NCBI RefSeq assembly: GCF_006345805.1 | Contig: NC_042997.1 | Span: 60,698,001-60,762,000 of the forward strand | Length of the DNA stretch: 64,000 nucleotides | Reading direction: 5' to 3' | Origin: Octopus sinensis | Lineage: Eukaryota | Shown here: positions 7,593 to 60,431 of the stretch, one piece after another | Numbering within the stretch: position 1 is the stretch's first letter | Layout: each line of letters begins with the position of its first letter | The notes under the pieces: generated by a model | Databases searched by the model: none | Told to the model about the DNA's origin: nothing | What the model saw: the letters and a program-made list of their open reading frames with translations, nothing else | Made by a program: the position numbers and the translations under genes

Positions 7593-8375
7593 TATGTAGT
7601 ACGGTATTAACCATTACTTGGGGTATCCACTGCTATAGATCTGAAATCAGAAGATTTGTGTACTTATAAATGTCCCAGTACTAATCTGATAGTGAAATAT
7701 TTTCCTTTAGTTAACATTATTGCTAATTCTATATCTTATTGTGAGCATTGTTGTATCACTTAAGACTGAGTTGTCAGATTCTCTTGAAACATATTAATGG
7801 CTAATAAATTCTGTTAAATCCAATTCAAGCACATAACTGAATTTGATACAGTAAGAAAAAAATCAAAATTTATTGACAGAATATAAACAAAACATTGAGA
7901 ATGCACAAAAAGTGACCACCACCACCTGTTTTGGACACTTTAGATTGTAAATGAAATTAGGTGGACCAAAACTATGTGGAAAGTTCCTCAGATTAATTGT
8001 TTTTCTTCTTGGGTGATACAATTTAATTCCTTACCCAGTTTAATACCAATGTCTGGTTCTTGGATGTATTTAGCAGAGTCCACTCTGACAATAACTCATG
8101 AATCATTGTTTCTTTTCCTCTAGCTAAAGCCCTAAAAAATATTCATGTATTTAACAGGATTTATTAGCCATGAATATGTTTCAAGTGAATCTGACAACTC
8201 AGTCTTAAGTGATACAACAATGCTCACAATAAGATATAGAATTAGCAATAATGTTAACTAAAGGAAAATATTTCACTATCAGATTAGTACTGGGACATTT
8301 ATAAGTACACAAATCTTCTGATTTCAGATCTATGGCAGTGGATACCCCAAGTAATGGTTAATATTATACTACATA
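7593..8375. repeat. Inverted repeat: arms 7593-7819 and 8149-8375 (about 227 bp), about 330 bp spacer
   Basis: tatgtagtacggtattaaccattacttggggtatcc... is the reverse complement of ...gataccccaagtaatggttaatattatactacata, with few mismatches. Confidence 0.97.
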
Positions 8376-8938
8376 CTTGACTGACACACTGAAATCTTTC
8401 TCAATCAGGTCTCATGGAGGTAAATAGGTATCATGTAAACACTTATGTAAACTGCAGGAGCACCACTTAATTATTATTGAATATTTCTATTAGTTTGCAA
8501 TTCTGAGCTGTAGTTCAGTAGGGCTCTAATAGAAAACTTGCCAATATTCAAACCCTAAAGTTTTAGTATTATTTAGTATTTTTAAAGCATAGATCATGAC
8601 CTTGTCTCTCAAGAAATTTGCTTTGACGGCAGCGGTGGCAATGGCGACGATGGCAACGACGACGACGACGACAACTATCTTGGCAACAGTAAAATTGGTT
8701 TATTTGGTGTTTTTCCATTAATCAGAAATATCAGCTTGCTCTTTCTTGACCCTACTAGCCATTACTCATTTTTTTCCCTTCTATAAAAATAGACGAATGG
8801 ATCTTTCACCAGAACTGAGTTGCAGGTGTAGTTTTCAAAAGAGAAAGAATATTTATTGAAGAAAGAGAATACTTGACCCTCAACTTTGGCTGTAAACTGA
8901 GAGTAGACTGCAACAGCAACACCACAACTGACTAACAT

Positions 8939-9041
8939 TAAGGTGGCAAGCTGGAAAAATTGCTAGCACGCTAGGTGAAATGCTTAGTGGCATTTTGTCT
9001 GCTGCTACGTTCTGAGTTCAAATTCTGTCGAGGTGGACTTA
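8939..9041 (+). mobile_element. 5' part of a second tRNA-derived SINE family (family B)
   Basis: aaggtggcaagctgg...gttctgagttcaaattc (B-box-like GTTCAAAT). Decayed relatives at about 1-115 and 420-500 (+), and 38690-38800, 49675-49860 and 59680-59890 (-). Confidence 0.6.
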
Positions 9042-9489
9042 TTACAACAGCATTAGGCTAGCAGTTCAACCAAATGTATACTGAAGTTTTCTTTACTAAA
9101 GATATTTTAACTTTTCCTTTCTCTGTTCCAGTAACAATTCAAAACTATTTTCTATAGCATTTGAAAAAATAAATATTTTTTTACATCTGAGAAGCATTAT
9201 TCTTTTCAAGATATCTCTCACTCACCTTTCTTCTCAACAACATGCCTACTCCAAACATAACTGCTGATCTCCACCAAAAGACTACAAAGTCCTTCTATTA
9301 ATAATCACTCAAGTAGCCAGTCTTTAATTATGGTGAGCCTTGTATGAGATCCAAGTTTTTGAATTGGTAATGGCCTACATGTAACTGTATCTTTCAAGTA
9401 AGACATTTGCACTGACTAACAAAGTTGTCCCGCTGAATTATGTCATAGTGGTGGTGGTGTCTCTTGTGTACAAAAAGAGGATCCCTTCA

Positions 9490-10170
9490 ACTGTTTCCCA
9501 GGGCCTTAACTGATCGTCACTTCCACTGGTGACATGACCAAGTGCTCAAGGAAGCTGCAAAGGTGATAACAGCCATTCAGTCCCTGTAAACACCAGCCCA
9601 GAAAGGAGGTCATCACCTTTTTCATGGCTGGAGGGAAGCCTTGTTCACTGAAACGTCAATGACTGTATCTACGTTCAACAGCCGAGAACGGGTCACAGCA
9701 AACAGATAAAGTCTAGTCCCCAGAATACATCATACTAATGACACTCCACCCAGCCATAGTAATTTTCTCAAATTCTACAAAACAGATGAGAAATGACTGT
9801 GCCCTGGGAAAAACACACGAAGGAAGCTCGTGAGAGAAAGCTTGCTAAATACCATGAGTTACAGAAGCCAAGCCTGGCAGATGCATTGAGATTCAACAGA
9901 AGAAGCTGCTGGGGATTCGTGTGGCATTCATTCGGCAAAGCGCTGACAAGTGCTACAAAAGAGGAGGCCATACATCTGATCAGTGAGGCTTCAGAGTGGG
10001 CTATTAGATGGCTTTGGATAAAAAAAAACGCTGACCAGTGGCTTGTCAAATCTGAGATGTAAGATGCAACTTGATCAGCTGGGTGGGTGGGTGAGGGTGT
10101 CTGATGTTGAAACTCCCTAAGACCTCCAAAATATCACAGATGATGGAGCGTCCGGGAGATGTATCGTGGA
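9490..10170 (+). mobile_element. 3' fragment of an RLE-type (HERO-like) non-LTR retrotransposon
   Basis: Decayed HW*HDQVLK, FMAGGKP, LHPAIV..., (E)MTVPWEKHTKEARERKLAKYHEL and SEWAIRWLWIK match the RPD/ELTVPWEE...ERK..KY restriction-like endonuclease region. The 3' UTR gggtgagggtgtctgatgttgaaa resembles HERO elements. Confidence 0.8.
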
Positions 10171-11724
10171 ACTGAAGAAGGGAGGTTACTCTTAAGTGGA
10201 TTTGAGTTTAAAATAAATATACTGAACTTAGCGGCCTTTAAGACGCAAATATTTTTTCTAAATGTATACAGAAACTTGCCTTGAATGTAATACAGTCGTT
10301 TAATATTCCGGATAGGAGACCGACCATCATAGACTAGGGAGCTGAATGACCACAGGTCCGTTTACAACATAATTGTTACTGATAATACAATATTTTAAAC
10401 GAGCCAAATTATCATAGACTGTTATCGTAAACTTACGAAATAATGCCCACACTACGTCGGCAGTTGTTATGAGGTCACATAATCTCATTATACTTTCTTC
10501 CTCGGCGTATATAACCCACACATGATATGTCTTCATTATTTAATGATTCTATTGTTAAAAACATTTTCATTTTATTATACGAAAAATTCACCAAGATGAT
10601 GACAACAAAACTAAAGTGATGGTGTACCACCCTCATAGCCGGTCGCGGTTACTCACAACATCTCAGACAAAATACGAGTTTTTAATCCAATATAGGAATT
10701 CTCTTGACCAAAATCTAAACAATTATACAGTTCACCCGAAGATAATGTTGAAATACGCTCTCCCATAACATAGTTTATTTCTGATAAATTTATGATTCCA
10801 TACTTTATTCCACTATACCATCATAATGTTGTATTTGCATGTACAGAACCATATATTTTCCCCCAGTAAATCACTTGAATGGTCTTTCAAGAATTTGTTT
10901 TTACGCCTGCCAACAGTATTAAAAATTAAGAAGCAATGGGACGTGGTCGAAGGGAGATAACTCTCCTCCGTTATGTTCAAATCCTTAAACTTTACATCGT
11001 CCAGTACAATTGAGTAATGCATGGATATTATTGCATGCACTCGTCATTGATCTTCTGTAAGTACAGTTGTGGGTGATAATACTAGCAGATAAGTGAGAGG
11101 GCATCAAAAATGAATAAAGAATACCGCATACAAGTAATTACTAGATAAGTAATTAGTGTAGCATATAATTCTTGGATAAATAATGGTTCGCTGTTCAGTG
11201 TAGGCCCTTGCCTTTTAAGATGAAATAATTATCCACGGCTTCCAACCATCGTGTCTTTTTATATTCATGTCTGTGATTCTATTTGACACGTTGAATAAAA
11301 CTATGAACTCAGAGGAACTCCAGTGAAATGCTTTTACTCTGCTCACATAATCCCGTTCTGAGCAACCACGAGGTAACATATGCATCTCCGGTATTGAGTA
11401 TATTTCCTTCTGTGCGTTACTAATAGCGTACCTATGACCATGATGATTTCCAATCAAGTTGAATATTGTAATATGAGTAGAAACATACGCTGAGATATGG
11501 AAGAACCATGCACCCATACGTTTTCCGGAAATATTGCCATCCTAACAAGAAACTTTTACACAAGCGACTGTTAGAGGAAACTGAGAGCGTATTAAAGAAG
11601 GTTGAAGGGGAAACGGAGATGATACACTTGGCTTATGTCAAACAGAAAACCTATTTCATCAAAGACATGAAAAATCTTTTCATGGCAGAGGCCCTGAGTA
11701 AGCTTATGAAAACGTTAAGTTTGC

Positions 11725-11950
11725 CAACCAAAACGAATTAAAAGAATATCTATAATCCAAATTTCCAGCAGCCTATTTGTGAAAGCAGATGAAACGAAAA
11801 ACGTATACAAGATTGGCAAAAATGCGAATAACATTGCTAACAAAACAATAGCGCTAAAACATAGTGTTGAGACAATGAACCTAATTGTCTCAACACTTCA
11901 AATTAATCGACCACATTGAATGCTTCAACAAACGTAAACCGTACTTTTGT
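11725..11950 (+). mobile_element. Penelope-like element (Neptune-type) RT N-terminal remnant
   Basis: QNELKEYL...SSLFVKADETKNVYKIG...HIECFNKRKPYF resembles the PLE F-V-x-ADKT-x-N-x-Y motif region. Confidence 0.6.
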
Positions 11951-11956
11951 ATCGTA

Positions 11957-12066
11957 TTTTTTACTTGTTTCTGTCATTAGATTGCGGCCATGCTGGAGTA
12001 CCGCTTTGAAGTTTTAGTCGAATGAATTGACCCAGTACTTAATTTTTGTTAAGCCTGCTACTTACA
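11957..12066 (-). mobile_element. SINE family A, 3' part
   Basis: tttacttgtttctgtcattagattgcggccatgctggagtaccgc is the reverse complement of the family A tail. Confidence 0.8.
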
Positions 12067-12579
12067 CAAAGGCACGCACAAATATATATTTTTTTTCACA
12101 CGAGAGTTCTGGACCCCAGTTATAAACTCTTTTGCATACAGCTAATCAGAATTCAACTATCAAATTAATTTATGACCGCATAACAAGTGATGGGCGATAA
12201 GATAAAGTCACTTGGGTAAGAAATGACCATGATTCTTTTCTCTTTTAAGAATGCTTGTTGCTCTTGTTTTTGTTTCAACCATGGTTGCCTCTGCATAGTT
12301 ATTTGTGTTGTTGTTTACTTTGTAAAACAGTAAGGGGAGAGGGGTGCTAGCACATCACCCTCTGCCCACATTTTCCCCATTCATATCTTTACCATATGGG
12401 GCTCTAACAAAATCTGGTAATAGGTATAGATGCAAATCTATCTAATTAGTTGTCTCCTAAAATCAGGCATAACTTGGGGATTGGTCGACTTACAACTTAT
12501 AATGTCTAAAAGTTGATGAACCACCTATTGTTGATCCCCTCCATTTTCTTATTGTTATATATATATATATACACATACT

Positions 12580-13165
12580 CTGTATCTTTTCTTCTTAGGA
12601 TCTACTTTTGGGAATTCAGTGTTCTTTCTTTTCCTTGTACGTGTGGTTTCTACTTCTTGTAATGGTGTCAGAACACAAAAAGTGTCATATACCCAATTAA
12701 TTGGTATTTCTACTCTTGTTGTTACCTTTTTTTTGACTCTTTCCTTAAGCTGATTTCTATATCCCTTTCCATTCCATTTCTGCTTCTTACACCAAACATC
12801 ATTCTTCCTATGTATGTTACAATTTTACCTTTTGCCCAGTATTACTTGCCATTTTTGTACATTCTTTACACTTAACGTTTTCATAAGCTTGGTCAAGGCC
12901 TCTGCCATGAAAAGACTTTTCATGTCTTTGATGAAATAGGTTTTCTGTTTGACTTAAGCTAAGTGTATCATCTCCGTTTCCTCTTCAACCTTATCACTTA
13001 TTCTAAAGAATTTTGGTATGTCTCTACTAGCACGTATTTTTTCTTCACTGGTAATAGTTTATCAAATACTGACTTCTCCTTACTGGTAAACATTAATTCT
13101 GCTGGTGAACTTCCTTCTGGTACATTTGGGTTTGGAGTTACCCTGTATACCCTTAAGAATTGTTA
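12580..13165 (-). mobile_element. Gypsy/Ty3 LTR retrotransposon integrase C-terminal remnant, interrupted by the 12870-12992 inverted arm
   Basis: The minus strand gives QFLRVYRVTPNPNVPEGSSPAELMF...SVFDKLLP (YRxTP...SPAELM motif). It resumes after the insert as MYKNGK*YWAKGKIV...IGRMM and ends ...VDPKKKRY. Confidence 0.75.
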
Positions 13166-13169
13166 GATC

Positions 13170-13350
13170 ATCAAATACCATTAACAACTTTTTGAGTTAT
13201 TTTACACACAGACGGACAGATGGACAAACCAACGCTGATGAAAACATAACCTCTTTCCTTGGCAAAGGTAAAAATCGCTGAAAACAATTGCAGTAATGAA
13301 AACATAGGAATCTAAAATTTCAGGATTGTAGGTTCGGATTCGGCCTGGAA
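13170..13350 (-). mobile_element. Non-autonomous Helentron/DINE-like fragment
   Basis: cagacggacagatggacaaaccaacgctgatgaaaacataacctc...ccttggcaaaggtaa resembles the GACA-repeat plus 'aaaacataacctccttggcggaggtaa' terminus of Helentron-associated elements. Confidence 0.45.
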
Positions 13351-13550: not shown

Positions 13551-14807
13551 CAGGGGTTGGACAAAATAATGGAAACAGCTTAACATTTCAAACAAATTTA
13601 TTTTAATATGGGGTAGGACTGCCTTTGGCAGTAATTACAGCTTGAATTCTACAAAGTATGGACTTGTACAAAGTTTGAATTGTTTCCAAAGGAATTTTTG
13701 TTCATTCTTCAGCTGTCTCCAGTTCTTGTAGTGATGATGGTGGAGGATATTGACTACTTACTTGTTTTTCTAAAATGCACCATAAATGTTCAATGATATT
13801 GAGATCTGTGGACTATGGTGGCCAGATAAGATGTTCAACTTCACTAGAATGTTCCTCGTGCCATTCAGTAACAACTTTAGCTGTGAGAGTTGGCGCATAA
13901 TCATCCTGAAGGATTGCTTTTCCCTCCAGAAACAGTTCCGCAACCATAGGATGAATTTGATCAGATTAAATGCTTAAATAGTCTTGACTATTAATTCTGC
14001 CATGAAGGGAAACCATTGGGCCAGAGGATTTGCAAGATATAAATCCCCAGATCATCACAGGTCCTCCTCCATGTTTAACAGTTGGAAGAAGACAGTCTGG
14101 GTCAAATGCTTCTTTTGGCTGTCTCTACATGTATACTCAGCCGATGGTTGGAAATAAGGTAAAGGATGACTAGTCTGAGAAAATAACATCCTTCTACTGC
14201 TCTAGGGACCAATTCTTAAGTTTTTTACTCCATTCTAAATGATTTGCAATGTTTGTTTTTGAAAGTGGTAGTTTTCTGATTGCAGCCCTCCCATGAAATC
14301 TGGCTTTGTGCAGCTCCTGGTAAACAGTTTTTGTGAAACTGGCTTCTTGAGGTGGTCATTAAGCTCTGCAGTAATTCTGGGAGCTGTACTTTTGTGATCC
14401 TTTCTAACAATTCACGTAAGAGTCCGATGGTCCCTACCTGAAAGTTTTGGTTTTCTTCCAGAGTTTTGTTTCGACGAGGAGGTTTTTCCCTCTTTCTCAA
14501 AGGCTTTCATTACTTTCGAGACAGTACTTCTTGATACACCAAACATTTCGAATCTTTTTGTTACAGAAGCGCCTGCCATACGAGCACCCACAATTTGACC
14601 TCTTTGAAAGCCTGATAGATCTGTCATTTTAATGAATTTTAATTACCTTTTTTCTGATGATATCTGAAAAGAAACAGCAATTTTCGCAAAACATATTAAA
14701 CAACACTAATAATAAATCAAGAAACATAAAAATAAATAAACTTTTGATGGTTTTATAGTTATTTCAAAATTATGATGCTAGGTGTTTCCATTATTTTGTC
14801 CAACCCC

Positions 14808-18025: not shown

Positions 18026-18157
18026 TGTGTGGGTATGGGTATATATATATATATCTGCTCATACCATTATTACAATCAATATGTATCCACACTTATTGTT
18101 GTATGTTAGTCAAAATTAAAATGGAGAATAATGGAAATAATATTTACAGCGTTATTG

Positions 18158-18344
18158 TATAACAAAATAGGAAAGTGGAAATTTATTTTTCGCATTATCT
18201 AGCAAAAATAATTTTCTCTGTCTGACAAATTTCTAATAGGAAATTACTTATGTCTATCTAATATGTAAATCTTTGTAATTCCTATTAACAACTGAAACGC
18301 ATGGAGAATAAATAATACCAAAAAAATTTCTACTTTCCTGTTTT

Positions 18345-18353
<9 letters not shown>
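18158..18353. repeat. Diverged inverted repeat/hairpin
   Basis: tataacaaaataggaaagtggaaattt pairs with aaatttctactttcctgtttttgttttata; inner taataggaaattac pairs with gtaattcctatta. Confidence 0.6.
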
Positions 18354-18383: not shown

Positions 18384-18887
18384 TGCTTGAATATATATAT
18401 TTATAATTATTGTGAGTATGCAGAACAATGGTAAAAAAAAAGAAAAACTATGATATGTTTGTTCATTTTTAACATGTTCTAGTTTACTAGGACATGAATA
18501 TGGCATTTACCATTAGGTTTTATCTTTGGAGAATAACTTCTCTCATTAGATGATAAGTGTTGACAGCACACATTATTCAGTGATGTAGGGAATTCTTTAT
18601 CTAAACAAGAACAGGTGTTCTTATTTATATAATTCAGAAAATGAAATTCACTGATGTGTGCTAATGTCTTTCAAGCTGATATTAAATTCTTGTGATGAGC
18701 AAACAAAACAGTGAATAGCATATTTGATTTAACTCTGTTAGAATATGTTAAGAATCTATGTACACACTATTACACACACACATACACACACACACATGCA
18801 CATATATATATGCATATATACATACATAGCTATGCATATATATATGTACTTATATACATACATATGCATATATATACATATATATGT

Positions 18888-18921
<34 letters not shown>

Positions 18922-18922
<1 letters not shown>

Positions 18923-20345
18923 ATGTTCGTCCTTCGGGTTTGAAGATGACCATTGACATCATTTGGTGGAATTGCTGCTATGAGACCTGAGGTGGCTGGT
19001 GAGGCCAATCCGGGCAAGAAAGCCCCTCCCACAGGTGGGGCAGAAGTGGGTAGGGGCTGTGCTATTGGTGCAGGTGCTCTGGCTTTCCGCATCTGGCGTT
19101 TCTGTTCTGCTGACTGAATCCGTCTCTCCTCGGCTGTCTTTGCTCCTGTGGTGATTGCGCTGCGCCAGGATGAGCGGTCGGCAGCAAGTGTCTCCCAAGT
19201 CTCTGTGCCAATGGAGAAGTCTTTGAGAGAGACTTTGAGACTGTCCTTGAAGCGCTTCTTCTGCCCTCCGACTTTGCGTTTGCCCTGGCTGAGTTCACCG
19301 TAGAAGAGCTGTTTTGGGATGTGAGTGTCGGACATGCAGGAGACGTGGCCTGCCCATCTCAGCTGGGCCTTGCGCATGATTGTGATGGTGCTAGGGAGAT
19401 CTGCCTGCTTCAGAACTTCCGTGTCTGGGACTTTGTTCTGCCAGCGGATGTGAAGGAGGTTCCGAAGATACCTGAGGTGGAAGTGGTTTATCTGGCGCTC
19501 GTGCCTTCGGTAAGCAGTCCACGTCTCGCAGCCATACAGTAGGGTGGTAAGCACGACTGCCCAGTAGACTTTCAGCTTGGTGTTGAGGCTGATTCCTCTC
19601 CGCTCCCAGACTTTCTTTCGCAGTCTCCCAAATGCGCTGCTTGCCTTGGATATTCTGTTGATGATTTCAGCATCTATGTTGGCATTGCAGGAGAGAGTGC
19701 TGCCCAGGTAGGTGAAGTTTTCCACCGCTCATAGGATCCGTCCGTTCACCTTTATCTGAGGCCCATGGTATTGTTTGCCGGAGGCTGGCTGAAACATCAC
19801 TTCGGTTTTTTTGGCACTGATGGTGAGACCGAAGTTGTCACAGGCTGATGAGAACCTGTCCATCCCGAGCTGCATCTCCTGCTCATCGATTGCGTTAAGG
19901 GCAAAGAGAAAGTCTCTGACGACTGTCTCCCTCACCTTTGTGATGGCCTGCAATCTTCTGGAGTTGAAAAATTTCCTGTCCGTCCTGTACTTGATGTCGA
20001 TACCGGACTTGCAATCCCTGAAGGCGTCGGACAGCATTGCCAAGAACATGATGCTGAACAGTGTTGGGGCCAGGACACAGCCCTGCCTGACTCCATTGGT
20101 CACCTGGAAGACTTCAGATGAGTTGCTGTCTTCAAGGACTCTGGCTGTCATTCCGTCGTGGAACTGGCAGACAATTGCAATAAATTTGCTGGAGCAACCA
20201 AATTTTCCCATGACCTTCCAGAGTCCCTCCCGACTGACTGTATCGAAAGCTCTGGTGAGGTCAACAAAGGTCATGCAGAGGTCAAGGTGCTGCTCCATGC
20301 ATTTCTCCTGGAGCTGGCGGGCGGCGAATATCATGTCAGTGGTTC
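18922..20345 (-). mobile_element. 5'-truncated RTE/BovB-like LINE (RT + C-terminal C2H2 finger)
   Basis: ORFs 19729-20334 and 18850-19725 contain MIFAARQLQEKC, FVDLTRAFDTV, GVRQGCVLAPTLF, FTYLGS, LLYGCETW and QLRWAGHV. A shifted frame gives CPTCGRGFLARIGLTSHLRSH. The 3' end abuts (TA)n. Confidence 0.93.
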
Positions 20346-20800: not shown

Positions 20801-22440
20801 TGTATTCAGAGTACAAGTAGGGGGTCCACCAAGGCTCAGTCCTCAAGCCCCTCTTGTTCATCATAGTCCTCCAGGCAATAACACCGGAATTTAAGACAGG
20901 TTGCCCCTGGGAACTCCACTATGCCGATGGCCTTGCTGTTATAACTGAATTACTACTGGAACTGGAGAAGAAATTTCAGGGGAGGAAACAAGGTCTAGAA
21001 TCAAACAGCCTTAGAGTTAATCTAGCAAAGACCAAAGTCTTAGTAAGTAGGAAAGCAAACAAATCACAGATCTTTTTAGGTAGATGGCCCTGCTTAATCT
21101 GTGGAAAAGGTATAGGTAGTAACTCCATAAGATGTACCCAGTGTAAGCTATAGACACATAAGAGGTGCAGTATATTCAGAGGAACAGATATTTTCTGTAT
21201 ATTTATAGTATTTGTTGTACCTGTGCCCCGGTACTACAAATACTACAGGTACAACAAATACTACAAATGTACAGAAAATAGACTTCATCAAATGCCAGTG
21301 GGGTAAACTAGAAGTAGTTGATAGCTTCTGTTATCTATATAACCAAGTTAGTGGTGGAGGTGGATGCTCTGAGAGTGTAGCTGCAAGAATAAGAATAGGC
21401 TGGGCAAAGTTCAGAGAGCTCCTACCTCTGTTGGTAACAAAGGGCTTCTCCCTCAAAGTGAAAGGCAGATTGCATGATGCCTGAGTGTGAACAGTCATGC
21501 TACTTGGCAGTGAAACATGGGCTATGATTGTCGAGGACATGTGTAGGCTTGAAAGAAATGAAGTTAGTATGATTCGCTGGATGTTCAATGTCAGCGTACA
21601 TGTACAACAAAGTACAAGAGTCTTGAGAGTAAAGTTGGGCATGAGGCATCAGATGTGGTGTGCAAGAGAGAGACAACTGTGTCGGCATGGTCATTTGATG
21701 AAGATGAATGTGGACAGCTGTTTGAAGAAGTGCCAATCTGTAACAGTGGAGGGAAGCTGTGGAAGAGGGTGACCCAGAAAGGCATGGAATGAGATGGTGA
21801 AGCATGATCTTTTAACTTTGGGCGTCGCAGAGGCAATGACTAGTTTCTGAGATCTTTGGTGATATGCTGTGCTTGAGAAGGCCCGTCAATCCAAGTGAAT
21901 TCCTTGTCATAGCTGTTATCAGTGTCATGTAACTGGCAGCCATGTTGGTGGTATATAAGAAGCACATTTTGAGCATTGGGCCTCACGGAGGCAATGTGGT
22001 CAATGCCGGTGTCACATAAAAAGCATCTTTTGAGCGTTGGGCTTCATGGAAGCAATGACAGATGACCGAGACCTTAGGCAATGTGTTGTGCTTGAGAAGA
22101 AGATCCATCAAGCCAAGTGAAATCATAGTTATGGCAGATACTGATGTCACACAACTGCTACCCATGCTAGTAGCACGTAAAAGCACCCATTACACTCTTG
22201 GAGGGGTTGGTATTAGGAAGAGCATCCAACCATAAAAACTATGCCAAATCAGAGTGGAGTCTAGAACAGCCTCTCAGCTCACCAGCCCTGGTCAAACCGT
22301 CTATCCCATGCTAGCATGAACAACAGTTGTTAAGGGCATCCAGCCACAGAAACTATACCAAAACAGATAATGAAGCCTAGTGTGCCCCCCCCCCCCCCCG
22401 GCATTACCAGCTTCTGTTAAACCATCCAACCATTGCCAGT
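20800..22440 (+). mobile_element. Decayed RTE-like LINE 3' half with long 3' UTR; source of the (GAT)n-tailed repeats
   Basis: VHQGSVL..LLFIIVL, PWELHYADGL, LRVNLAKTKV, CLICGKGIGSNSIRCTQC, VVDSFCYL, GWAKFRELLP, LGSETW. The 3' UTR carries repeated ...cacgtaaaagcac units and cccatgctagcatg. Confidence 0.85.
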
Positions 22441-25165: not shown

Positions 25166-25788
25166 TTTTATCTTTTACTTGTTCCAGTCATTAGACTGTA
25201 GCCATGCACTGCCTTGAAGAATTTTAATCAAACTTATGCCCCTCATCCACCAGTACTTAATTTTTGTAAAGCCACGTAGTTATTCTATCAGTCTCTTTTG
25301 CCAAACCACTAAGTTATGGGGATGTAAACACACCAACAGTGGTTGTCAAGTGGTGGTGGGAGACAAACACATACACAAAAACATACATAGATACGTATTC
25401 TTTTACTCTTTTACTTGTTTCAATCATTTGATTGTGGTCATGCTGGAGCACCACCTTTAGTCAAACAAATTGACCCCAGGACTTATTCTTTGTAAGCCTA
25501 GTACTTATTTTATCGGTCTCTTTTGCCGAACCTCTAAGTTACGGGGACCTAAACACACCAGCATTGGTTGCCAAGCGATGTTGGGGAGACAAACACAGAT
25601 ACACAAACACACACACACATATACATTTGGCTTCTTCCAGTTTCCATCTACCAAATCCACTCACAAGGCTTTGGTGGGCTCAAGGCTATAGTAGAAGACA
25701 CTTGCCCAAAGTGCCACGAAGTGGGACTGAACCAGGAACCATGTGGTTGGTAAGCAAGCTACTTACCACACAGCCACTCTTGCGCCTA
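25166..25788 (-). mobile_element. Two tandem SINE family A copies (partial 25166-25385; near-complete 25399-25788)
   Basis: Reverse complement of family A, head to tail. Confidence 0.88.
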
Positions 25789-25837
25789 TATTGTCAGAAA
25801 ATCATAAATCTGAAAGAAAAGCTCACTCTAAGTTACA

Positions 25838-26116
25838 GAGCAGTAGAATATTTAGATAAAGATAGTTATGGCTGTCTCATAACTATTTTTATCTAAATAT
25901 TCTACTGCTCAAGGTTGTTTCATAGACAATCCATCGCATTTGATCTTTGTGTGTTCAAAAACTAGCCACAAGGCCTGTTTTTCCTCTATTTCAAAAAGAG
26001 GGGGCATAGGCCACTGCCATTAGAGTCTGAATTGATATATTTAAAGCCAATCGCTTTATGGACACAAAATCCTGGGTAACCCTATGAACTGGCCATAACT
26101 ATCTTTATCTAAATAT
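25838..26116. repeat. 33-bp hairpin (25838-25910) plus a third, inverted 25-bp arm copy (26092-26116)
   Basis: gagcagtagaatatttagataaagatagttatg pairs with cataactatttttatctaaatattctactgctc. gccataactatctttatctaaatat is the exact reverse complement of 25848-25872. Confidence 0.93.
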
Positions 26117-30739: not shown

Positions 30740-31560
30740 GACACTGGTAAACGCTAGTAGAAAACACATCTAAGGTAATTCCCCATCTATGACAAGTGGA
30801 TCCAAATATCATTTAGAAGAGTTTTCAGAAATTCAGAGTATTAGATGACAAAAATACAGCTAGAGAAAATCACATCTTTAATTGTAGAATTCACCATACA
30901 AAACCAACAATCATTTCTGTTGCATCAACATATGTAGATAAGAAAAATATCATTCAAATTAATATATCTGAAAAAATGTTAACACAATATTTTCAAGGTA
31001 ATTCTGACTCTGATAATACAGTTTAGTTAACACTTACTTTTAATATTAATTATAATAATAATAATAATCTGCCTCGACACCTAATTCTGAGTGGAGGACT
31101 AATAGAAATTCTTTCAACCATTAATACCAAATACAAATGACTAAATGTCTGTGTAATTGTAAAAACAAAACTGTTTGTCCTTTAGAAAATCAGTGTTTAA
31201 GGAAAAATATAGTGTATCAATGTAAGGCAATAACAGGGGATTATAAGTATTATTACATAGGTTCATCTGCTACAATTTGGAAATTTAGATTTTATGATCA
31301 TTCTCACTCATTTAAGCATAGAAGAAAAGGTAATTCTACAAATCTTGGTAAATGAAGTATTCCATTATTAGTTACACACCATTGTACAATGTTGGCAATT
31401 TGACATGTAATCTTTGTATTATATAATTATTTCTAAATTAATATCATTAAATTTTAATGGTAATTTAATTTTACAAAGAAATGCCACAAATTTCAGAAGG
31501 TATTTAAATATTTCAATTCTTAATTATAATAGCTTTTCATATAATATGTAATAAGCATAA
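30740..31560 (+). mobile_element. Penelope-like element (Neptune-type) linker + GIY-YIG endonuclease remnant
   Basis: ORF 31137-31355 CNCKNKTVCPLENQCLRKNIVYQC...YYIGSS...KFRFYDHSHSF...NSTNLGK matches the PLE CNC-CPL-IVY-YIG-R...H..SF-STxL pattern. Confidence 0.85.
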
Positions 31561-31960
31561 TTTTTCTAAAAACAGTTTGGTATATTTAATAAATAGATAA
31601 CTAAGTGTTGTGACATAGAATCTCTATGTTTGAAATTGTCATAAAGTAGAATTCATTTGTTTATTTTCTATTCTTTCGTTGCCTACTGACATCACCAAAA
31701 GCTGAATACAAAAATAACTTTTCTTAGATTATATTTCTTCTTAACATTCTTTTTGGATGCATTCATGTACTTGAAATGTCTTCTTTGAATCTAACTAATT
31801 TTAGATTGCCTTGAAAACATGTTAACATGTATTTTTGGATATATTAAGCTGAATGATATTTTCTGAATATAAATATGTTGAATCAACAGAAATGATCGTT
31901 GGTTTTGTATGGTGAATTCTACAATTAAAAATGTGATTTTCTATATCTGTATTTTTGTTA
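30847..31960. repeat. Inverted repeat: arms about 30847-31003 and 31805-31960
   Basis: ttaattgtagaattcaccatacaaaaccaacaatcatttctgttg pairs with caacagaaatgatcgttggttttgtatggtgaattctacaattaa; moderately diverged. Confidence 0.9.
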
Positions 31961-32228
31961 TATATATTTACACACTCTTGAGTGGAGTTGATGTTTTCAA
32001 CTACCATGAATCATTCTGAAAATCAGTCTACTAGTCACCTTCTTGGTACCCTTGTATATATGGCTTTTCACGCACACATATATATGTATTTATATGTGCA
32101 CTTTATATGGATGTTAATGTAATATTTATTATATAACTAATGAGATTACAAAACAACTGTAAATGAATGGAATAAACATTTACTCTCTTACCTCACTTTC
32201 CTTAACTGTTCTCTTTCTCTATACATAC

Positions 32229-32274: not shown

Positions 32275-32615
32275 TATATATATACACATACATATACATA
32301 TATATACATACCCTCTCTCTCTTTCGGAGAGGCACTGAGCAGCTATACGCACATATACACACACGGCAGTAACTTCCACCTACCGAATTCAATCACAAAG
32401 CTCCGGTCGGCTCGGGGCTATAGTGGAAGACACTTACCCAAAGTGCCACGCAGTGGGACTGAACCCAAAACCATGTAGCTAGGAAGCAAGGTCCCTAACC
32501 ACATATACATATATACACACATATACATACACACACACACATACACACACACACACACATATATATATATTGAATAATGAGAATGAGTGCTCAACACGGC
32601 ATTGGTGGATAAAGA

Positions 32616-32819
32616 TTATTTGTGCATTAAGGCTAACATTGGTTTCATGTTAAGGAATATCTCAACAATTTTCAAACCTATCACATGGAAACATCAGTGT
32701 TTGTTTCCATTTTGGATTAAAACACCAAATAGAGATGAACACCAATGTTTGAAATTTGTTAATGTATTCCTTAACATGAAACCAATGGTTGCTTTAATAC
32801 ACAAATAAAGTATATATAT

Positions 32820-32853
<34 letters not shown>

Positions 32854-32902
32854 CTTTATTTGTGTATTAAAGCAACCATTGGTTTCATGTTAAGGAATAC
32901 AT

Positions 32903-36134: not shown

Positions 36135-36149
36135 AGATACATACATACG

Positions 36150-36218
<69 letters not shown>

Positions 36219-36295
36219 CTATGTATATATATATGTATATATATGTTATATATATATGTATATATATATGTATATATTATATGTATATATATATG

Positions 36296-36354
<59 letters not shown>

Positions 36355-36720: not shown

Positions 36721-36751
<31 letters not shown>

Positions 36752-36786
36752 TATATATGTATATAATATATATGTATATATATATG

Positions 36787-36817
<31 letters not shown>

Positions 36818-37345: not shown

Positions 37346-37395
<50 letters not shown>

Positions 37396-37834
37396 GTATA
37401 TATATATATGTATATATATATATATGTGTATATATATATATGTGATATATATATATATGTATATATATATATGTATATATATATATGTATGTGTATATAT
37501 ATATATGTATGTATGTATATATATGTATGTATGTATATATATGTATGTATGTATATATATGTATGTATGTATATATATGTATGTATGTATATATATGTAT
37601 ATGTATATAATATATGTATATATATGTATATAATGTATGTATAATATATGTATGTATAATATGTATATATATATATATGTATATATATGTATATATATAT
37701 ATGTCTATATATATATATATATGTATATATATGTATATATATATATGTATATATATATGTATATATATATATATATGTATATATATGTTATATATATATG
37801 TATATATAATATATATATGTATATATATGTGTAT

Positions 37835-37869
<35 letters not shown>

Positions 37870-37949
37870 TATATATATATGTATTATATATATATATATA
37901 ATGTATATATATGTATATATATATATATAATGTATATATATATATATAT

Positions 37950-37981
<32 letters not shown>

Positions 37982-38090
37982 ATAGTATATATATATATAT
38001 ATGTATATATATGTATATATATATGTATATATATATTATATATATATATATAAATAATATATATGTGTGTGTGTGTGTATGTATATATTG
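36135..38090. repeat. About 2-kb degenerate (TA)n/(TATG)n microsatellite array
   Basis: Seen directly; gives all the YIY/CIY ORFs here. Confidence 0.98.
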
Positions 38091-38118
38091 TTTCGAATTT
38101 GTGTGAATGTGTATAGAA

Positions 38119-38314
38119 TAATATATCAATTGAATAAAGTTAAAACATAGTCTGGTTTTCACATTTTTTATAATGGTATTTTAATATTAAAAAAAATATT
38201 TTGTAATGCTAATTTAACTTTATGAGCATTGCAAAATATTTTTTAATATTAAGATACCATTATAAAAAATGTGAAAACCAGACTATGTTTTAACTTTATT
38301 CAACTGATATATTA
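38119..38314. repeat. Near-perfect hairpin (arms 38119-38210 / 38225-38314, 14-nt loop)
   Basis: The arms are reverse complements. The ORF track shows the same MKTRLCFNFIQLIYY on both strands. Confidence 0.97.
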
Positions 38315-45843: not shown

Positions 45844-46119
45844 CTAAAATATACAATTGATTTTATATGCTTTGAACAAAGAATCATTTATTATCGTATG
45901 ATCATAATGCAGTTCATCTTAATATTTCAATACCAAACTAACTTTTTATAAAAATGTGAACCTGTAAGCAATATAAAACCTTTAGAAAAATTTAAAAGGG
46001 AAGCAAATTTACCAGTGATAAAAAAATCCAAGAAGCTTCAGGTTCATTATAACAATAAAACACCTTTATAAATATGTGTGTGTGGGTGCATAAAGTTGTA
46101 AGGTACCACATGAGTGGAA

Positions 46120-46752
46120 ATATATATGAAAGAAGATTTTAAAATGCAATTTTAAAGATGTTTATTCATTTGACTGGTTTCACTTTTTTAGTGAAAGATT
46201 GTCAAAAGTAAAATGTAAAGCTTTGTATGAGCTTTGTTGTGTTAAGTACTGGTTGTCACATAAGTATTAAAAAACAGAAATACATTCTTTGATGATAATA
46301 AGAAAATGTTAAAAACAGTTTACGAGAAAGTATTTGAGAAAGTAATCAAAACGGGTTCAATAAAAATCATGTTCGTTTGGTAGCATATATATATACACAG
46401 GAGATATATTTAAGAATTTACAAAAAATTGTAGAAGATAACTGACTTACAGTTCTATATTTAAGAGATGAGGAATTATGAGCGTTATTTACATTCAATGG
46501 ATATTTGTCCTCATCTTGTTTGTTGTTAACTCAACATTTTGGCTGATATACCCTCCAGCCTTCTAATCAAAGAATGTATTATCAAAGTATGTATTTCTGT
46601 TTTTTAATACTTTTGTGATAACCAGTACTTAACACAACAAAGCTCATACAAAGCTTTACATTTTACTGTTGACAATCTTTTTCTAAAAAAGTGAAACCAG
46701 TCAAGTGATAAACATCTTTACAATTGCATTTTCTAACTTTCTTTCATATATA
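46120..46752. repeat. Inverted repeat: arms 46120-46293 and 46581-46752
   Basis: gtaaaatgtaaagctttgtatgagctttgttgtgttaagtactgg pairs with ccagtacttaacacaacaaagctcatacaaagctttacattttac. There is a 15-bp tandem duplication at the inner right junction. Confidence 0.95.
46455..46563 (-). mobile_element. Truncated pLTR-like repeat with a relic hammerhead stem II
   Basis: The minus strand reads GAA-GGCTG-GAGGGTATAT-CAGCC-AAAATG (compare CTGATGAA-stem-GAAAC). It is cut off by the inverted arm. Confidence 0.4.
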
Positions 46753-48070: not shown

Positions 48071-48129
48071 ATACAATTTTAGAGAAAGTCAGTCAGTCAG
48101 AACAGGAAGAGGGTCAATGATTGGCATAG

Positions 48130-51288: not shown

Positions 51289-51440
51289 GATGAGCATCTT
51301 CCACTCACAAGGCTTTGGTTGGCCCGAGGCTATAGTAGAAGACACTTGCCCAAGATGCCATGCAGTGGGACAGAAGCTGAAAGCATGTGGTTGGGAAGAA
51401 AGCTTCTTATCATACAGCCATGCCTTTGCCTTATATATTC

Positions 51441-51619
51441 TGTAAATAATAATTATAAGCTCAAGCTTAAAAGCATTCACCATATATTGGCTATAGAAAA
51501 TACTCTAATATTGGGGCATATAGGCTCTCAATGGCTTATACACCCCGATATTAGACTATTTTCTATAGCCAATATATGGTGAATGCTTTAGACGCTTAAA
51601 CTTATAATTATTATTTACA
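51441..51619. repeat. Near-perfect hairpin (about 85-bp arms, 8-nt loop)
   Basis: aagcattcaccatatattggctatagaaaata pairs with tattttctatagccaatatatggtgaatgctt; pairing extends out to tgtaaataataattataag / cttataattattatttaca. Confidence 0.95.
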
Positions 51620-54466
51620 TAATTTTTCACTCATCACCATTTCTTAACTTAATGCATATATATATATATAAAGAAATGAGGTGAAGGAACAAGAAATGAA
51701 ATCAAAAGAAAGTTGAAAAAAAGGTGATAATGGAAGGGAGGGAAACACTGTAAAATACAATGTCTCCTGGTTGACAAAAAGCAGATATGCTAATTATGTC
51801 AAACTGCTTTTCTTTTACCTTCAGTCTCTCTTTAATCTTTCCCTCTCACTCTTTAAAACTCTACTGTAATATTTTCCCTGTCTTCTTGTTTATGACTCAT
51901 TTTCTTTTAATATATTTCTCTCTCTCTCACAATCTTTACACCCATCTCTTCATATCATCTTTTTCTTTATTTCTTTATATTGTTTCAGTCATTTGACTGC
52001 GGCCATGCTGAAGCATCACCTTTAGTCGAGCAAATCGATCCCAGGACTTATTCTTTGTAAACTTGGTACTTATGCTATTGGTCTCTCTTGCTGAACCGCT
52101 AAGTGACAGGGACATAAACACACCAGCATCGGTTGTCAAGCGGTGTTGGGGGGACAAACATAGACACACAAACATATACATACATATATATATGACGGGA
52201 TTCTTTCAGTTTCCGTCTACCAAATCGACTCACAAGGCTTTGGTCAGCCTGAGGATATAGTAGAAGACACTTTCCCAAGGTGCCATGCAGTGGGACTGAA
52301 CCCAGAACCATGTGGTTGGTAAGCAAGCTACTTACCACACAGCCACTCCTGCTCCTGTTTGCAACTTCTTGTCTCTCTATTTCTCTTCTACATCACACTC
52401 ACACTCTCAAATCTCCTCTTTTTCCAACACGCACACAGTTACATGTCACCCACTACAAGTTTAAGCCCAAAATATCTGGAAACAACCAAGCTATTCCTGC
52501 TTTTTCAATTCTGAACAGATAACAATCTATTACAAAGAAAAACTGTCATGAAGAGTTTAGTTCAGTGTTTCCCAAATTCTTTGCACCAAATTGCAAAACC
52601 TATTGACCAAAAAATGTTCCATCACCCACCTGCGTAAAAAACTACAATTTTTACAGAAATAGTGACAGTCAAAACAGAGCACCATGTTGCAACAAAAGCT
52701 ATTCAAATACATGATTGAAACTTATTTTAAAGTTGCAAGAAATGCCTCATGGAGAGAATTACACCAGAAGATTCCAGTATGCTCTAGAATGTACTTTAAC
52801 TCTGGATTTTTGACTTCATATCAATGCCAACAAAACACTAGCTGTAGAACATGTTTAATGAATTAATGTTCCTGAATAATGAAGCTGCAATTATTAAGGT
52901 TGGAGATCATGGTAAATGAGTTATTTTAGAATGTCATGACAGTTGCATGAAATTCATAATGAAACTCATCATTCATATAATACTTAGCTATATCCATTGT
53001 TTTTTTTGTTTTTTTTTGTAATGGAATAAATAGCTACCACTTTGGTATATTGCAAGTTGGTTGGTTGGGTAACTTCCATAAAAAAACAAAGCAAAACAAA
53101 AAAATGTATTCTGTGTGGATTGTTATGCTTATTGATTCAGATTTGAAGCAGTTCATTTAACTGTCTTCATCATTGCCAAGACTTTTGTCTCTAATAAGTT
53201 TGTTGATATGTATGCCAACATAGAGTTGGAGAGGTAGTATTACATAAAAATGCATAAAAGGTATATTTAGAATCAGTTACGAACTTATGAAATAGTGTTA
53301 ATAAGGAACAGAGATCAGACTACACTGTATTCTGCCATTCAGTTTTAAAAGAAATCTGCAACATATACACAAGAGAGCACAGGGACCCCATGATTTATGC
53401 ATGCAATAATGAATGACTTGACCTTTGCATCACTTTTATTTGCAATGCTAATAGAGCAAAATCGAAGCAGAACTTTTAACAAGACGGTTATACACTGACA
53501 GACATAATACCATGACCTCAAATTATTCAGACTGCTATTCCAACTGATTGTTCCATGGAAATGATGGTTTTATACCAAGAACACCCAGAAATAATTATTA
53601 TACTCAAAAGGTTGCAGTTTCTAGTAAAACTTCAGTTTTTCTATGTTCATAAATAAATCATAAGAGCAGGCTTTATCTGTTGATGGGTTACAACTGGAAG
53701 AGAACATTGCTTTTTTCATAGATAATGAAACAAGTTGCATGTGTAAGAGATGGAAGTCCTTGCATTCAAAATACTGGGATTAATATGATTTATTAAAAAC
53801 CTTTGAAGGTAGTGCCAAAGTATGGTCACAGTTCAATGGTTGAAACCAACACTAAATAATAAAAGAATAAAAGAAGCAACCACCTTTACAACTTAAATAA
53901 TAACCCTAAATCCCTTGAAATTTTTCTAGTGAATCCCTCTTATCCTTGTTGAAATTGAGGGTACTACAGTTATACTGATTATCATGTATATACCTATCCA
54001 CACAATATTGAATACCACAATTCTCCTAATGTTGGTTTAGTTTTCCTTTCTTTTTTTGAGACAGTAATCAGATCATCTTTACACCTAGTTTCTGTTGCTT
54101 TCTCATAGCTTACACCCACTCATATTCACACCAATTGCTTAGAAACCAATTTTAGCTTATTGCCAATATCATATATTCAATACAAAGAAAGACTATATAT
54201 ATGTTAAGAGGAGTGCAGAAAATTTAAAGATTACATAGTTTTATTATAGTGACAATATTTTCTTTGTGAACTAAGTCCATGATGGGGGTTTTAGTTCTTA
54301 GCATGTTTAATACTGATGTGTTTGGGAAAGGTATGAACAGAAAAAAAATTAATGAATCCATCACTAAACTGCATATGTATTTCTTTTAACTCATTGTTTT
54401 ATACACTAAAGTATTCTATGGTGTGTAAATCAATCAATCTTTCTCTTTCTCTCTCTCTCTCTCTAC

Positions 54467-57232: not shown

Positions 57233-57265
<33 letters not shown>

Positions 57266-58613
57266 CAGAAAAGCCAGATAGATATATGAATGGAAAAACA
57301 GAAAGTGCAAGTTTCGCTAAAAAACAAAAAAACAACCCAAAATACTATTTATCCTAATTTTATGAAATATCAAATGTGTTTAAAAATAATTTTACCAATT
57401 AATTCACTGAATTAAGATGTATTTTTTATCTTGCCAAAATGTTGTTTTAACCATATCTGCTAATGATAATTTCTAACTTAAACAAAAGATCACAGATTTT
57501 AGGGAAAGGGTGTTGTCAATTAAATTGATACTAGTATTGATTGATAGTTATTTTATTGGCCCTGAAAAATATCTACTAATAATGCAACTATTAAATGCCA
57601 TAACATAACTTTTTCTCTTTTTTACAGCAAAACAATTTATTCTACCTTTGAGGTATTTATGCTCCTTCCTGATTTTTGATGCTCATTATCAGTAGTTTCT
57701 TTGAATATTATTGTTTATAATATATATTAAATGTCATATACAGTTATTATACCAAAAGGTGATATTTAACAATTGTTTTTCACTTATAAAATACCTCAGA
57801 CTACCAAATGGCAAATTGTAGCTAAACTTTGTTCAGTTCATTGAATTTTGTAATTCTAATAAATTATATTCGTATTCACACTGATTAAGTTTGCAGAAGC
57901 TAAAAGAAATAAAAAAATAAAACAAAATAATCATCATTATCCATTCATTTCCATTCTAATAATACTAGTTACTTTTAATGACTTATAGTCATCTTGTTAC
58001 TGTCTGTATAGTAAACATGCTGTCCCAGGTCAGCACTCATGGAGGTAACTTTTGATCAAAGGCAGTCCAGCCTTGTCCCCACTACCTTTATATATCCTTG
58101 AGTCAATTTTGTCTAATAAAGGGTGATGGAAATCAGAATCAGTAGAGCACTGAACAAAATACCATGCGTTTTATAATCTGTATTCAAATCCTATCAAGGC
58201 TGGCAGAATAAGTACTAATCAATATTATACTCAAAATCTTTGCTCATGTTAAAAAAATATATATAGGCAGACATTTCTATCATTGATGTTACGCTTAAAC
58301 CTCTACACGCCAATGTGTATTGGAAATATTGGCACAAGCTTGTATCACTTCTCTTTTTCTTTAAGATGAATTCTTTTTTAGAACATTTTTTTCAGTAAAA
58401 GAGTTTTAAATTTGAATGGAGAATATACTGTAAGTTAACAACTTAACAATAAAAGCTATTAACAGTGGAAATAAACTGAAGAATTTTTAGGAGGCAGATG
58501 AAAAGTGTTCAATCTGATTTAAGACACAGCATCAATACATATGGAGATTTTGCATATTTCAGGCCTGGACAATTCATGCCAGTATTACATATTACTGGCC
58601 AAGGAGATGTGAT

Positions 58614-58679
58614 ATTGGACTCCTGTGTGATAAATATCATATCCAAGTAGATATGATATTTATCATACAGGAATTCAAT
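58614..58679. repeat. 30-bp hairpin with 6-nt loop
   Basis: attggactcctgtgtgataaatatcatatc-caagta-gatatgatatttatcatacaggaattcaat. Confidence 0.9.
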
Positions 58680-60074
58680 CCATTGCAGATATATTACAAA
58701 TATTTCTTAATTTTACATATTTCAGTTCACAGTAGTTAAAAATAGGCACCAGATCCATTGGAAATGTTTTCTGAAATATGCAAGGGTTCTAACAAAGGTA
58801 GATTTATTTCTGATCTGTTTTATGCCCTGTAACTCTAAGTTCTGACCCTTGAAAACCTCCCAGGGATTAGGAGACGAGTACATTTAATCTGGTGTTCTGT
58901 CATTTTGCCATTCCAGCATCTTTTCCATTCTTACTGTTAATTTTGGATTTGATTATGCATATGCTTGTACATAGGATGAGTACAAAACATTTTTGAAGCA
59001 GTATTAGGTTAGTAGTGCTAACAGTTAGTGCATGCTGCTCCAATTTTTTACATTTTGCTTTCAGTTGCTGCAATTTCCCCGCCCTTTTTGTCGGGGATAA
59101 AAAAAAGAGTTGAATGTGTAAGTCTCCTGCTAATATTTGGTCACTCTACTACCATGACTTCTGTGGTTCCTTGTGATCATATACAGTAAGTGTATACCTT
59201 GCAGTTCTAAGCTAAACTGTAAAGGATCATGGTCCATCAGTGTGTGGACATACTCTGGTTTCACTCAACTACAATCTTAATGCTGGGGTCAACATAATCA
59301 ACTAGTCTTCCTCCTGCAAAAATCTCGTCTGCTTTCACAAATAGCAAGAGCAGATGAGACTGCCATAACTTGCAATCTATCTAGTAGGAAGTCATTCCAA
59401 ACAAAAACTATGGATGTTGCTTGTGCCTGGGTTCTTATTGTGTGTCACCTGAGGTTTTCAAAGTAAAGGGCAGACAAGGGCTTATGTCTAAAAATGGTAG
59501 AGCAGGGCTATAAATAGTTGTGTCTTGCATGTTTTTAAACAACAGTATAAAACCTAATAATAGATGAAAAAGTTATTTAAAATCCTTAATTTTATGGAGA
59601 ATTGAGATGGCTAGAGATGTCAGTGGAAGACTCGTCTGAAGATGAACTACATAATAATAATAATAATAATCCTTTCTATTATAAGCACAAAGCTGGAAAT
59701 TTTGCAGGAGGGAGACTAGTTGATTACATCAACCCCCAGAGTTGCACCAGTACTTATTTTACTGACTCTGAAATGATGAAAAGTAAAGTCAACCTTGGTG
59801 GAAATTGAACTCAGAATAAAAAAACTGAAAGAAATGCCACTGAACATTTTGTTTGATGTATTAAGAATTCTGCCAGCTTGCTGCCTTAATAATGGTTGCT
59901 ACTGTACTATGCTATACATTGACAGTTGATACAAATGAGATTGTGTGCTTTTTTTTTAGCAACTAACATATGTCCAGATGCATCAATTGAATTTGTTTCT
60001 CTAGTCTGTTCTTTTTTAGTTATGCTATGTATCTTAGCTGGATATCAGTTCCTACAAAAAGTGTCCAATTGCAA

Positions 60075-60431
60075 AATACAATGAATTCAATATATCCAGA
60101 ATAATGGTTTTTAAATAGTATTGTGAAAGAAATAAAGGAACATTATGAAAATTAAATTTTCCCCCAAAAGCAATAATTAAAGCCAGTCCATTCTGAAATC
60201 AAAACCAAGCTGAAAGCTCTATCTTTAAAGAATTATCTCCATACCCAACAGATATTTGAAACAGTAATGGAAAGGCTTAATATGTTAAGCCTTCATCAAA
60301 ACATAAGTTAAATATCCTTACTGTTAATAGCAATAAAAAAAGAAAGAATTTAAACAGAAAGACCTATATAATAAAAACAGCTTAATACTATTTAAAAACC
60401 ATTATTCTGGATATATTGAATTCATTGTATT
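60075..60431. repeat. Perfect 48-bp inverted repeat (60075-60122 / 60384-60431)
   Basis: aatacaatgaattcaatatatccagaataatggtttttaaatagtatt and its exact reverse complement. Confidence 0.97.

Follow-up and report, generated by a model that had tools for sequence, protein, structure and literature searches.

Introduction

Penelope-like elements (PLEs) leave a distinctive layout where they insert: the accessible parts of PMC8557442 describe 5'-truncated copies, partial tandems, an adjacent inverted truncated copy, a tail of 30-40 bp at one end only and (TA)n targets. In vitro, the tail lies between two start sites of the reverse transcriptase (RT), according to the available text of PMC11167929, and Penelope is abundant and recently active in octopus in the portions consulted of PMC13282606 and PMC8967140. 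Here we analysed the inverted repeats of a 64,000-nucleotide stretch of the Octopus sinensis genome (contig NC_042997.1, positions 60,698,001 to 60,762,000), hereafter the window, in which positions are counted from the first letter and each inverted pair is named by its start. The original prediction for this DNA had assigned these repeats to a recurrent local fold-back or templated-insertion process. We observed that there are two kinds of inverted repeat in the window and not one process: probably, seven multicopy pairs are insertion footprints of Penelope-like retroelements, and four single-copy pairs stem from local template copying during break repair or replication. The mechanisms are known already; it is the hairpins that are partly re-interpreted.

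Inverted pairs of the window

Microsatellites were masked and inverted pairs were then detected by self-BLAST of the 64-kb window. About ten inverted repeats had been listed, and all 11 of their starts coincide with inverted pairs; the pair at 18158 is decayed and its score fell under the BLAST cut in the self-comparison, yet it was seen in two other arm comparisons. Arms measure 30-233 bp, for a predicted 30-230 bp, and arm-arm identity runs from 71 to 100%, in line with the predicted range from perfect to heavily decayed; this spread is partly due to differing element ages. The third copies announced for two cases were found by self-BLAST at 26092-26116 and 32855-32896, and the 15-bp junction duplication was located at 46566-46595. 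At 7593 and 46564, where arms were said to start at the truncation of another repeat, other copies of both families bear the truncation out.

Each pair was also searched in the whole 2.72-Gb assembly, 40 candidates being scored per search; the candidates are not copy numbers, and the search skips very common words, which limits the meaning of "unique". The arms had been described as seen only locally. This holds within the window but not genome-wide, where 7 of the 11 pairs are multicopy and 4 are single-copy. The multicopy pairs (18158, 25838, 30847, 32616, 38119, 46120 and 51441) represent different families with 579-3372 candidate sites each (Table 1), and each seems unique within 64 kb because the genome has many PLE families. 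Local templated inversion, as originally proposed, fits four of the 11 listed pairs, about a third, as well as fold-backs inside repeats; it does not fit the other seven, whose asymmetric shape is found again at many loci and agrees with Penelope-like insertion.

Layout of the multicopy families

Copies were mapped onto one natural long copy per family, and rows called inverted through microsatellite or internal matches were excluded. In each of the seven families, the 3' tip is fixed and the 5' truncation is variable, and the inverted partner ends at a second fixed point, a family-specific 33-165 nt before the 3' tip. This partner stops 27-49 nt short of the tip at 7 of 15 loci of the 38119 family, 62 nt short at 2 of 12 loci for 25838, 50-51 nt short at 4 of 15 for 32616 (one more locus, L072, is nearly symmetric), 33-44 nt short at 6 of 16 for 51441 and 150-153 nt short at 2 of 8 for 30847. 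For 18158 the distance is 165-175 nt at 13 of 26 loci, two of which resemble duplicates. For 46120 it is exactly 37 nt at 5 of 24 loci, and seven further single copies terminate at the same point. When family copies are compared, the inverted copy often directly abuts the 5' truncation point; (TA)n or (CA)n usually adjoins both ends of the insertions, and partial head-to-tail tandems are present in the two families examined for them, 51441 and 46120.

The spacer of the 46120 pair contains a piece of another, very abundant family, B (46447-46563), which has the same two-end pattern: among 23 matches, 14 copies stop at one point and 5 stop about 35 nt further. This piece is cut at 46564, and other copies, at L019, L230, L231, L234 and L242, occur with inverted-plus-tail pairs. 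The piece could have arisen through a template jump from one RNA to another. A 5' truncation, an adjacent inverted copy and a one-sided tail were found in all seven families and in family B. In the window, a degenerate (TA)n tract of about 1.9 kb (36130-38064) lies directly beside the 38119 element.

Such a footprint may arise when AT-rich or (TA)n DNA is nicked by the GIY-YIG nuclease and the RT starts at two fixed sites in the element RNA; joined head to head, two 5'-truncated complementary DNAs would then give a hairpin that is tailed on one side only. The footprints of the window support, within a genome, the existence of two fixed RT start sites, and have tails beyond the published 30-40 bp.

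The multicopy pairs, and chiefly the three families in which no open reading frame (ORF) was found, could instead be miniature inverted-repeat transposable elements (MITEs), foldback elements or DNA elements of the Helentron type, whose inverted repeats are long or subterminal. Indeed, they are short, AT-rich, hairpin-forming and TA-flanked, and one of 15 copies of 32616 (L072, above) is nearly symmetric. However, their ends are asymmetric, arm length and spacer differ from copy to copy, many copies are one-armed, the 5' ends are ragged, partial tandems occur and four families lead into PLE-type frames. Moreover, the true terminal-inverted-repeat element of the window (13553-14807) is unlike them, with 28-bp symmetric ends and a DDE_3 match in its second copy. 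The statement that the pairs are not terminal inverted repeats of one MITE family was borne out; in none of the seven families did we find symmetric, fixed-length terminal inverted repeats with a target-site duplication (TSD), arms being variable in all. We had ourselves dropped a MITE reading of these pairs when the ends turned out to be asymmetric, and consider a DNA-element origin highly improbable. Recognising PLE footprints is useful for repeat annotation, as hairpin-shaped PLE remnants are easily filed as MITEs.

Coding capacity and RNA motifs of the families

RT and GIY-YIG in one ORF were found for the 38119 family only. Its long copies lead into a frame with seven homologues (best E 1e-40); these relatives carry PF00078, PF26215 and PF01541, with PF01541 in 6 and PF00078 in 5 of the 7. 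Compared directly with Pfam, the frame itself gave GIY-YIG with an E of 0.0077, under the cutoff. In the 30847 and 25838 families, GIY-YIG-type C-terminal motifs were recognised by alignment only. The arm at 30847-31003 had been read as lying inside a Penelope remnant; it belongs to the architecture of the Penelope element itself and did not insert into it. The 18158, 46120 and 51441 families can be called PLE-type by structure alone, and these three ORF-less families are presumably non-autonomous passengers.

Hammerhead core-like words occur in copies of 38119 and 18158, with no Rfam match. Family B has what we take to be a hammerhead-like core with stem II. Over the whole window, Rfam gave just sub-threshold microRNA-like matches to hairpins and microsatellites.

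The unit of the 51441 family, about 300 bp long, shows partial tandems, inverted copies and a 73-nt tRNA-like segment, which reached the gathering score of Rfam RF00005 in 3 of 11 loci and was called by ARAGORN in 2 of 20. The common sequence extends 100-220 nt upstream of this segment, which is thus internal, and a T run comes after it; a tRNA-derived short interspersed element would have its tRNA-related part as a head at the 5' end. The tRNA-bearing tandem unit was seen at L167, L168, L171-L173, L176, L180, L181 and L184. In the literature searched, outside of which lay most subscription papers, Repbase/Dfam and supplements, we found no report of a tRNA-bearing non-autonomous PLE or of octopus PLE hairpins; octopus consensus libraries of PLEs and short interspersed nuclear elements (SINEs; PMC8557442, PMC13282606) may hold these families already.

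Single-copy pairs and local fold-backs

The arms of four pairs (7593, 11598, 58614 and 60075) were found nowhere else in the genome search, with common words skipped. The clearest event is the second arm of the 11598 pair, at 12870-12992. It is present in 0 of 39 other copies of the host repeat, 35 of which resume just after the insertion point, and it is missing from 11 of 11 fetched host-repeat copies; the sequence was copied from 11598 to 12870. The junctions have 1-nt and 5-nt microhomology, with about 3 bp lost and no TSD, and the 12870 joint is identical in contigs of four runs. In runs X1, X4 and X13, the contigs are interrupted precisely where the two 11598 arms have an identical stretch of 37 bp; therefore, the 11598 duplication is common to samples with three different organism labels. 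The predicted position of this arm inside a Gypsy element stands in so far as translations of other copies make the host Ty3/Gypsy-like; the family label itself is our assumption from its motifs.

For the 7593 pair, X1 and X4 have one and the same 465-bp contig, which spans the two inner junctions. The truncated TTAA-ended repeat at its border is presumably piggyBac-like. A word resembling the missing end of this repeat lies near 8122-8133 (9 of 12 letters), a likeness too weak to order events at 7593. In the 58614-58679 hairpin, G-U pairing is possible on the plus strand at two of three mismatches.

Local copying was also seen inside repeats (Table 1). The 25838..25910 fold-back is not the inverted arm of the PLE because it extends about 10 nt into the tail. 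An empty site without the derived arm was found for 12870 and 21189 only. Two candidate pairs taken at random from the genome sample described below were searched genome-wide, and both are local duplications: one is a 106-bp local inverted duplication from an old repeat (L270, 9324-9966; 98%), the other a perfect 93-bp fold-back beside a truncated repeat (L235, 9513-9698). This class is therefore not confined to the window. The sample also holds, at L210 (2619-5566), inverted repeats nested in one another, whose 100% identical arms are as long as 933 bp, either a very young insertion or an assembly artefact.

The perfect pairs 60075 and 32768 could themselves be fold-back artefacts of long-read assembly, their arms being 100% identical. 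Against this, their arms are short, normal sequence stands on either side and the neighbouring pairs tested occur in independent samples; contigs of independent DNA samples support 7593 and 11598, the two pairs compared, and to that extent answer the concern about assembly artefacts. We judge such an origin to be very unlikely.

In local copying, a free 3' end would pair with the opposite strand no more than about 1.2 kb away, through microhomology of 1-5 nt, and would rejoin after copying 27-233 nt. For the single-copy arms, template switching during replication is at least as likely as DNA polymerase theta (Pol theta), for which 120-230 nt would be a long tract. We assume that the 123- and 233-bp tracts are closer to events of the MMBIR (break-induced replication mediated by microhomology) or fork stalling and template switching (FoSTeS) type.

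Table 1. Inverted-repeat features of the window and the evidence for each. Candidates are sites returned by the genome search.
Position	Strand	Feature	Basis
7380..7593	.	Short TTAA-ended repeat; last ~12 bp lost where arm 7593 begins	6 other copies run ~12 bp further
7593..7820	+	Unique arm, likely derived copy; ~2 nt common with truncated repeat at outer junction	96.5% to partner; only two arms genome-wide
8148..8375	-	Partner arm, likely source	Arm comparison, genome search
11598..11720	+	Source of templated insertion, unique	2 candidates genome-wide
12870..12992	-	123-bp inverted templated insertion in Gypsy-type remnant (~12560-13170), ~3 bp replaced	Empty sites in other copies
18058..18349	-	Non-coding PLE-type insertion: tailed copy and inverted tail-less copy ending at (TA)n; tail ~165 nt	933 candidates
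21189..21280	.	Inverted copy of local sequence (34 bp, 94%) in place of part of a long interspersed nuclear element (LINE); outside earlier list	Left arm absent from family copies
25787..26116	-	Probable PLE insertion: short tailed copy and inverted tail-less copy; tail 62 nt	632 candidates; longer copies have C-terminal motifs of GIY-YIG type
25838..25910	.	Local fold-back, 33 bp, 97%, at junction of two PLE copies	Arm comparison
30748..31964	+	Probable PLE remnant: GIY-YIG-type frame and inverted partial copy; tail ~150 nt	921 candidates, same layout elsewhere
32565..32810	-	Probable PLE insertion; 50-nt tail, arm without tail ends at (TA)n	1125 candidates; one long copy with RT motif and GIY-YIG frame
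32768..32896	.	Perfect 44-bp fold-back across (TA)n	Arms 100% versus 91% mean, 97% best, to other copies
38086..38314	-	Probable PLE insertion; tail ~34 nt, microsatellites both sides	910 candidates; upstream frame matches RT+GIY-YIG proteins, E 1e-40
46092..46750	-	PLE-type insertion: tailed family A copy, tailed family B piece (46447-46563), inverted tail-less A arm at (TA)n; tail 37 nt	3372 candidates
51437..51661	+	PLE-type insertion of ~300-bp non-coding family, internal tRNA-like segment in longer copies; tail ~33 nt	579 candidates
58614..58679	.	Unique 30-bp hairpin, 6-nt loop, 90% arm identity, pre-microRNA-like shape	1 candidate genome-wide; fold z -8.9
59295..59726	.	27-bp pair, 96%; right arm in common repeat, left arm likely local copy; outside earlier list	Self-BLAST, arm comparison
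60075..60431	.	Unique perfect 48-bp arms, 261-bp spacer	1 candidate genome-wide

Density of inverted pairs

The genome was sampled as eighty evenly spaced 10-kb pieces (800 kb), with 40 shuffled pieces as control. The suggested check against shuffled DNA came out clearly: 165 local inverted pairs were counted in 800 kb of real DNA (2.06 per 10 kb) and 20 in the window (3.1), against 0 in the 400 kb of block-shuffled control. Very abundant repeats account for 104 of the 165 sampled pairs. We then defined as co-generated those pairs whose arm-arm identity is 85% or more and lies 3 points above the identity to other copies. There are 48 such pairs in the 800 kb (0.6 per 10 kb), 12 in 200 kb of flanks (0.6) and 13 in the window (2.0); without a microsatellite flank, the numbers are 22, 3 and 9, respectively. 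The window, which was chosen for the feature and has ordinary flanks, thus stands at about 3.4 times the average (13 pairs versus 3.8 expected, bootstrap P ~0.0006). Roughly extrapolated, 48 and 26 pairs per 800 kb would amount to about 160,000 co-generated pairs in the genome, with a microsatellite flank in about 88,000. With a stricter filter, about 18 PLE-like pairs remained per 800 kb, from 25 rows of which 7 were judged by eye to pair abundant SINE-like repeats and were removed.

Breaks or stalled forks could be concentrated in the 64-kb stretch, making it a local hotspot for PLE insertions and templated inversions alike, which would add to the two-kinds reading. The counts of co-generated pairs, with or without microsatellite flanks, speak for it. 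On the other side, the window was picked for the feature, its flanks are average, pair density has no relation to GC (rho -0.05) and the microsatellite-masked share is not higher in the window (7221/64000) than in the sample (117286/800000). Such a hotspot seems unlikely to us.

Weighing one process against two

A single host fold-back or templated-insertion process could have made all the pairs, on repeats and unique DNA alike. Real local events do exist in the window, which is enriched in co-generated pairs, and in multicopy pairs too the arms are closer to each other than, on average, to other copies (93.6 versus 87.7% for 38119; 88.4 versus 81.4% for 51441). However, variants common to both arms are also explained by one RNA template, and repair would not halt at the same family nucleotide at unrelated loci, as is seen for 46120, where the end lies exactly 37 nt short at 12 of 24 loci. 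The recurring end points already contradict a common process for seven pairs, and we consider it most improbable.

Several observations weigh against the division into PLE footprints and local copies. The mapped loci are the top matches of partly hairpin-shaped queries, so that the layout fractions are biased upward, and window tails of 150-165 nt exceed the 30-40 bp given in the accessible text of PMC8557442. As to proteins, the 32616 family has an RT motif followed by a frame placed beside GIY-YIG clusters in Atlas (0.96), which comes from one long copy, and a homologue search with this frame was blank; Pfam made no call for the 25838, 30847 or 32616 frames. The 25838 frame gave nothing usable in Atlas and one unnamed protein in a profile search, and no ORF was found for 18158, 46120 or 51441 within the loci examined. 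Neither the window nor 13 loci gave a hammerhead match in Rfam. For 7593, 58614 and 60075, the first of which was compared with sample contigs, we saw no empty allele. Finally, the window excess of co-generated pairs is left unaccounted for.

Possible bearing on double-stranded RNA

Octopus has an exceptionally high share of long near-perfect double-stranded RNA (dsRNA) loci, 4.4e-3, in the available text of PMC5625713, which explains dsRNA abundance for frog but not for octopus and describes massive editing of Penelope in lizard. As that text, so far as accessible, reports both the octopus excess and the editing of lizard Penelope, the footprints of PLEs can be named as a concrete candidate source of octopus dsRNA. 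The earlier suggestion that this genome may repeatedly create dsRNA substrates, set beside the extensive ADAR editing of coleoids, becomes a concrete question about these footprints. It is conceivable, though we remain doubtful, that Penelope-like insertion, including the tRNA-bearing non-autonomous family, stamped tens of thousands of self-contained hairpins across the octopus genome and would be a main source of its abundant near-perfect dsRNA and hyper-editing. If true, this would name a source of the exceptional long near-perfect dsRNA share of octopus.

Other features of the window

A likely last coding exon lies at 6394-6766, with the 7593 pair about 830 bp downstream; it has no match in Pfam or PDB. 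Its C-terminal motif is, we presume, like that of folylpolyglutamate synthase. Runs X13 and X5 have five differences in common within 6470-6493, where no X1 or X4 contig lies, which may reflect a paralog, a divergent haplotype or a mutation cluster. Run X5, whose kind is unrecorded, has contigs across much of 6392-12315 and none over 5667-6200, and was not used as evidence of expression, as contigs reveal neither strand nor level nor editing. Downstream of the exon, a weak decayed hairpin (68%) lies at 6980-7131.

A Tc1/mariner-type element with 28-bp symmetric ends occurs at 13553-14807 and 47060-48069, the second copy with a DDE_3 frame at 47579-48079. Decayed LINE frames lie at 525-3655 and 18850-20343; from their motifs, we take them to be an endonuclease plus RT on the plus strand and an RTE-like RT on the minus strand.

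Comparison with known systems

The local events resemble Pol theta templated insertions (PMC7165422) and short-range template switching (PMC7954356), as far as the accessible parts of these articles describe them: there as here, an inverted nearby copy comes with short microhomology, a small deletion, no TSD and AT-rich sequence. In PMC7165422, as available, Pol theta scars are typically 3-30 bp with insertions of up to 157 bp, whereas tracts in the window are as long as 123 and 233 bp, with one source at a distance of 1.15 kb.

The multicopy families are closest to endonuclease-positive (EN+) Penelope-like elements with a C-terminal GIY-YIG domain. The order of RT, then GIY-YIG, is alike for the 38119 family, and so, more generally, are the 5' truncation, inverted truncated copy, one-sided tail, partial tandems and (TA)n targets, as presented in the portions consulted of PMC8557442 and PMC11167929. 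They differ in that tails are 50-165 nt in four window families, that most copies are very short remnants and that the window families tested gave no Rfam hammerhead.

Short, non-coding, tandem-forming elements presumed to be moved by PLE proteins, like the window families in which no ORF was found, are described in the available texts on non-LTR (long terminal repeat) retrozymes (10.64898/2026.07.22.740005), on non-autonomous Chlamys such as MRC1 (PMC8557442) and on the Schistosoma SM-alpha Pol III/hammerhead tandem SINEs (PMC6765202). As far as these texts go, the 51441 family differs from all three in its internal tRNA-like segment and T run, in having no detected hammerhead and in its full inverted-plus-tail footprint, and its nearest precedents are the retrozymes and Schistosoma SM-alpha.

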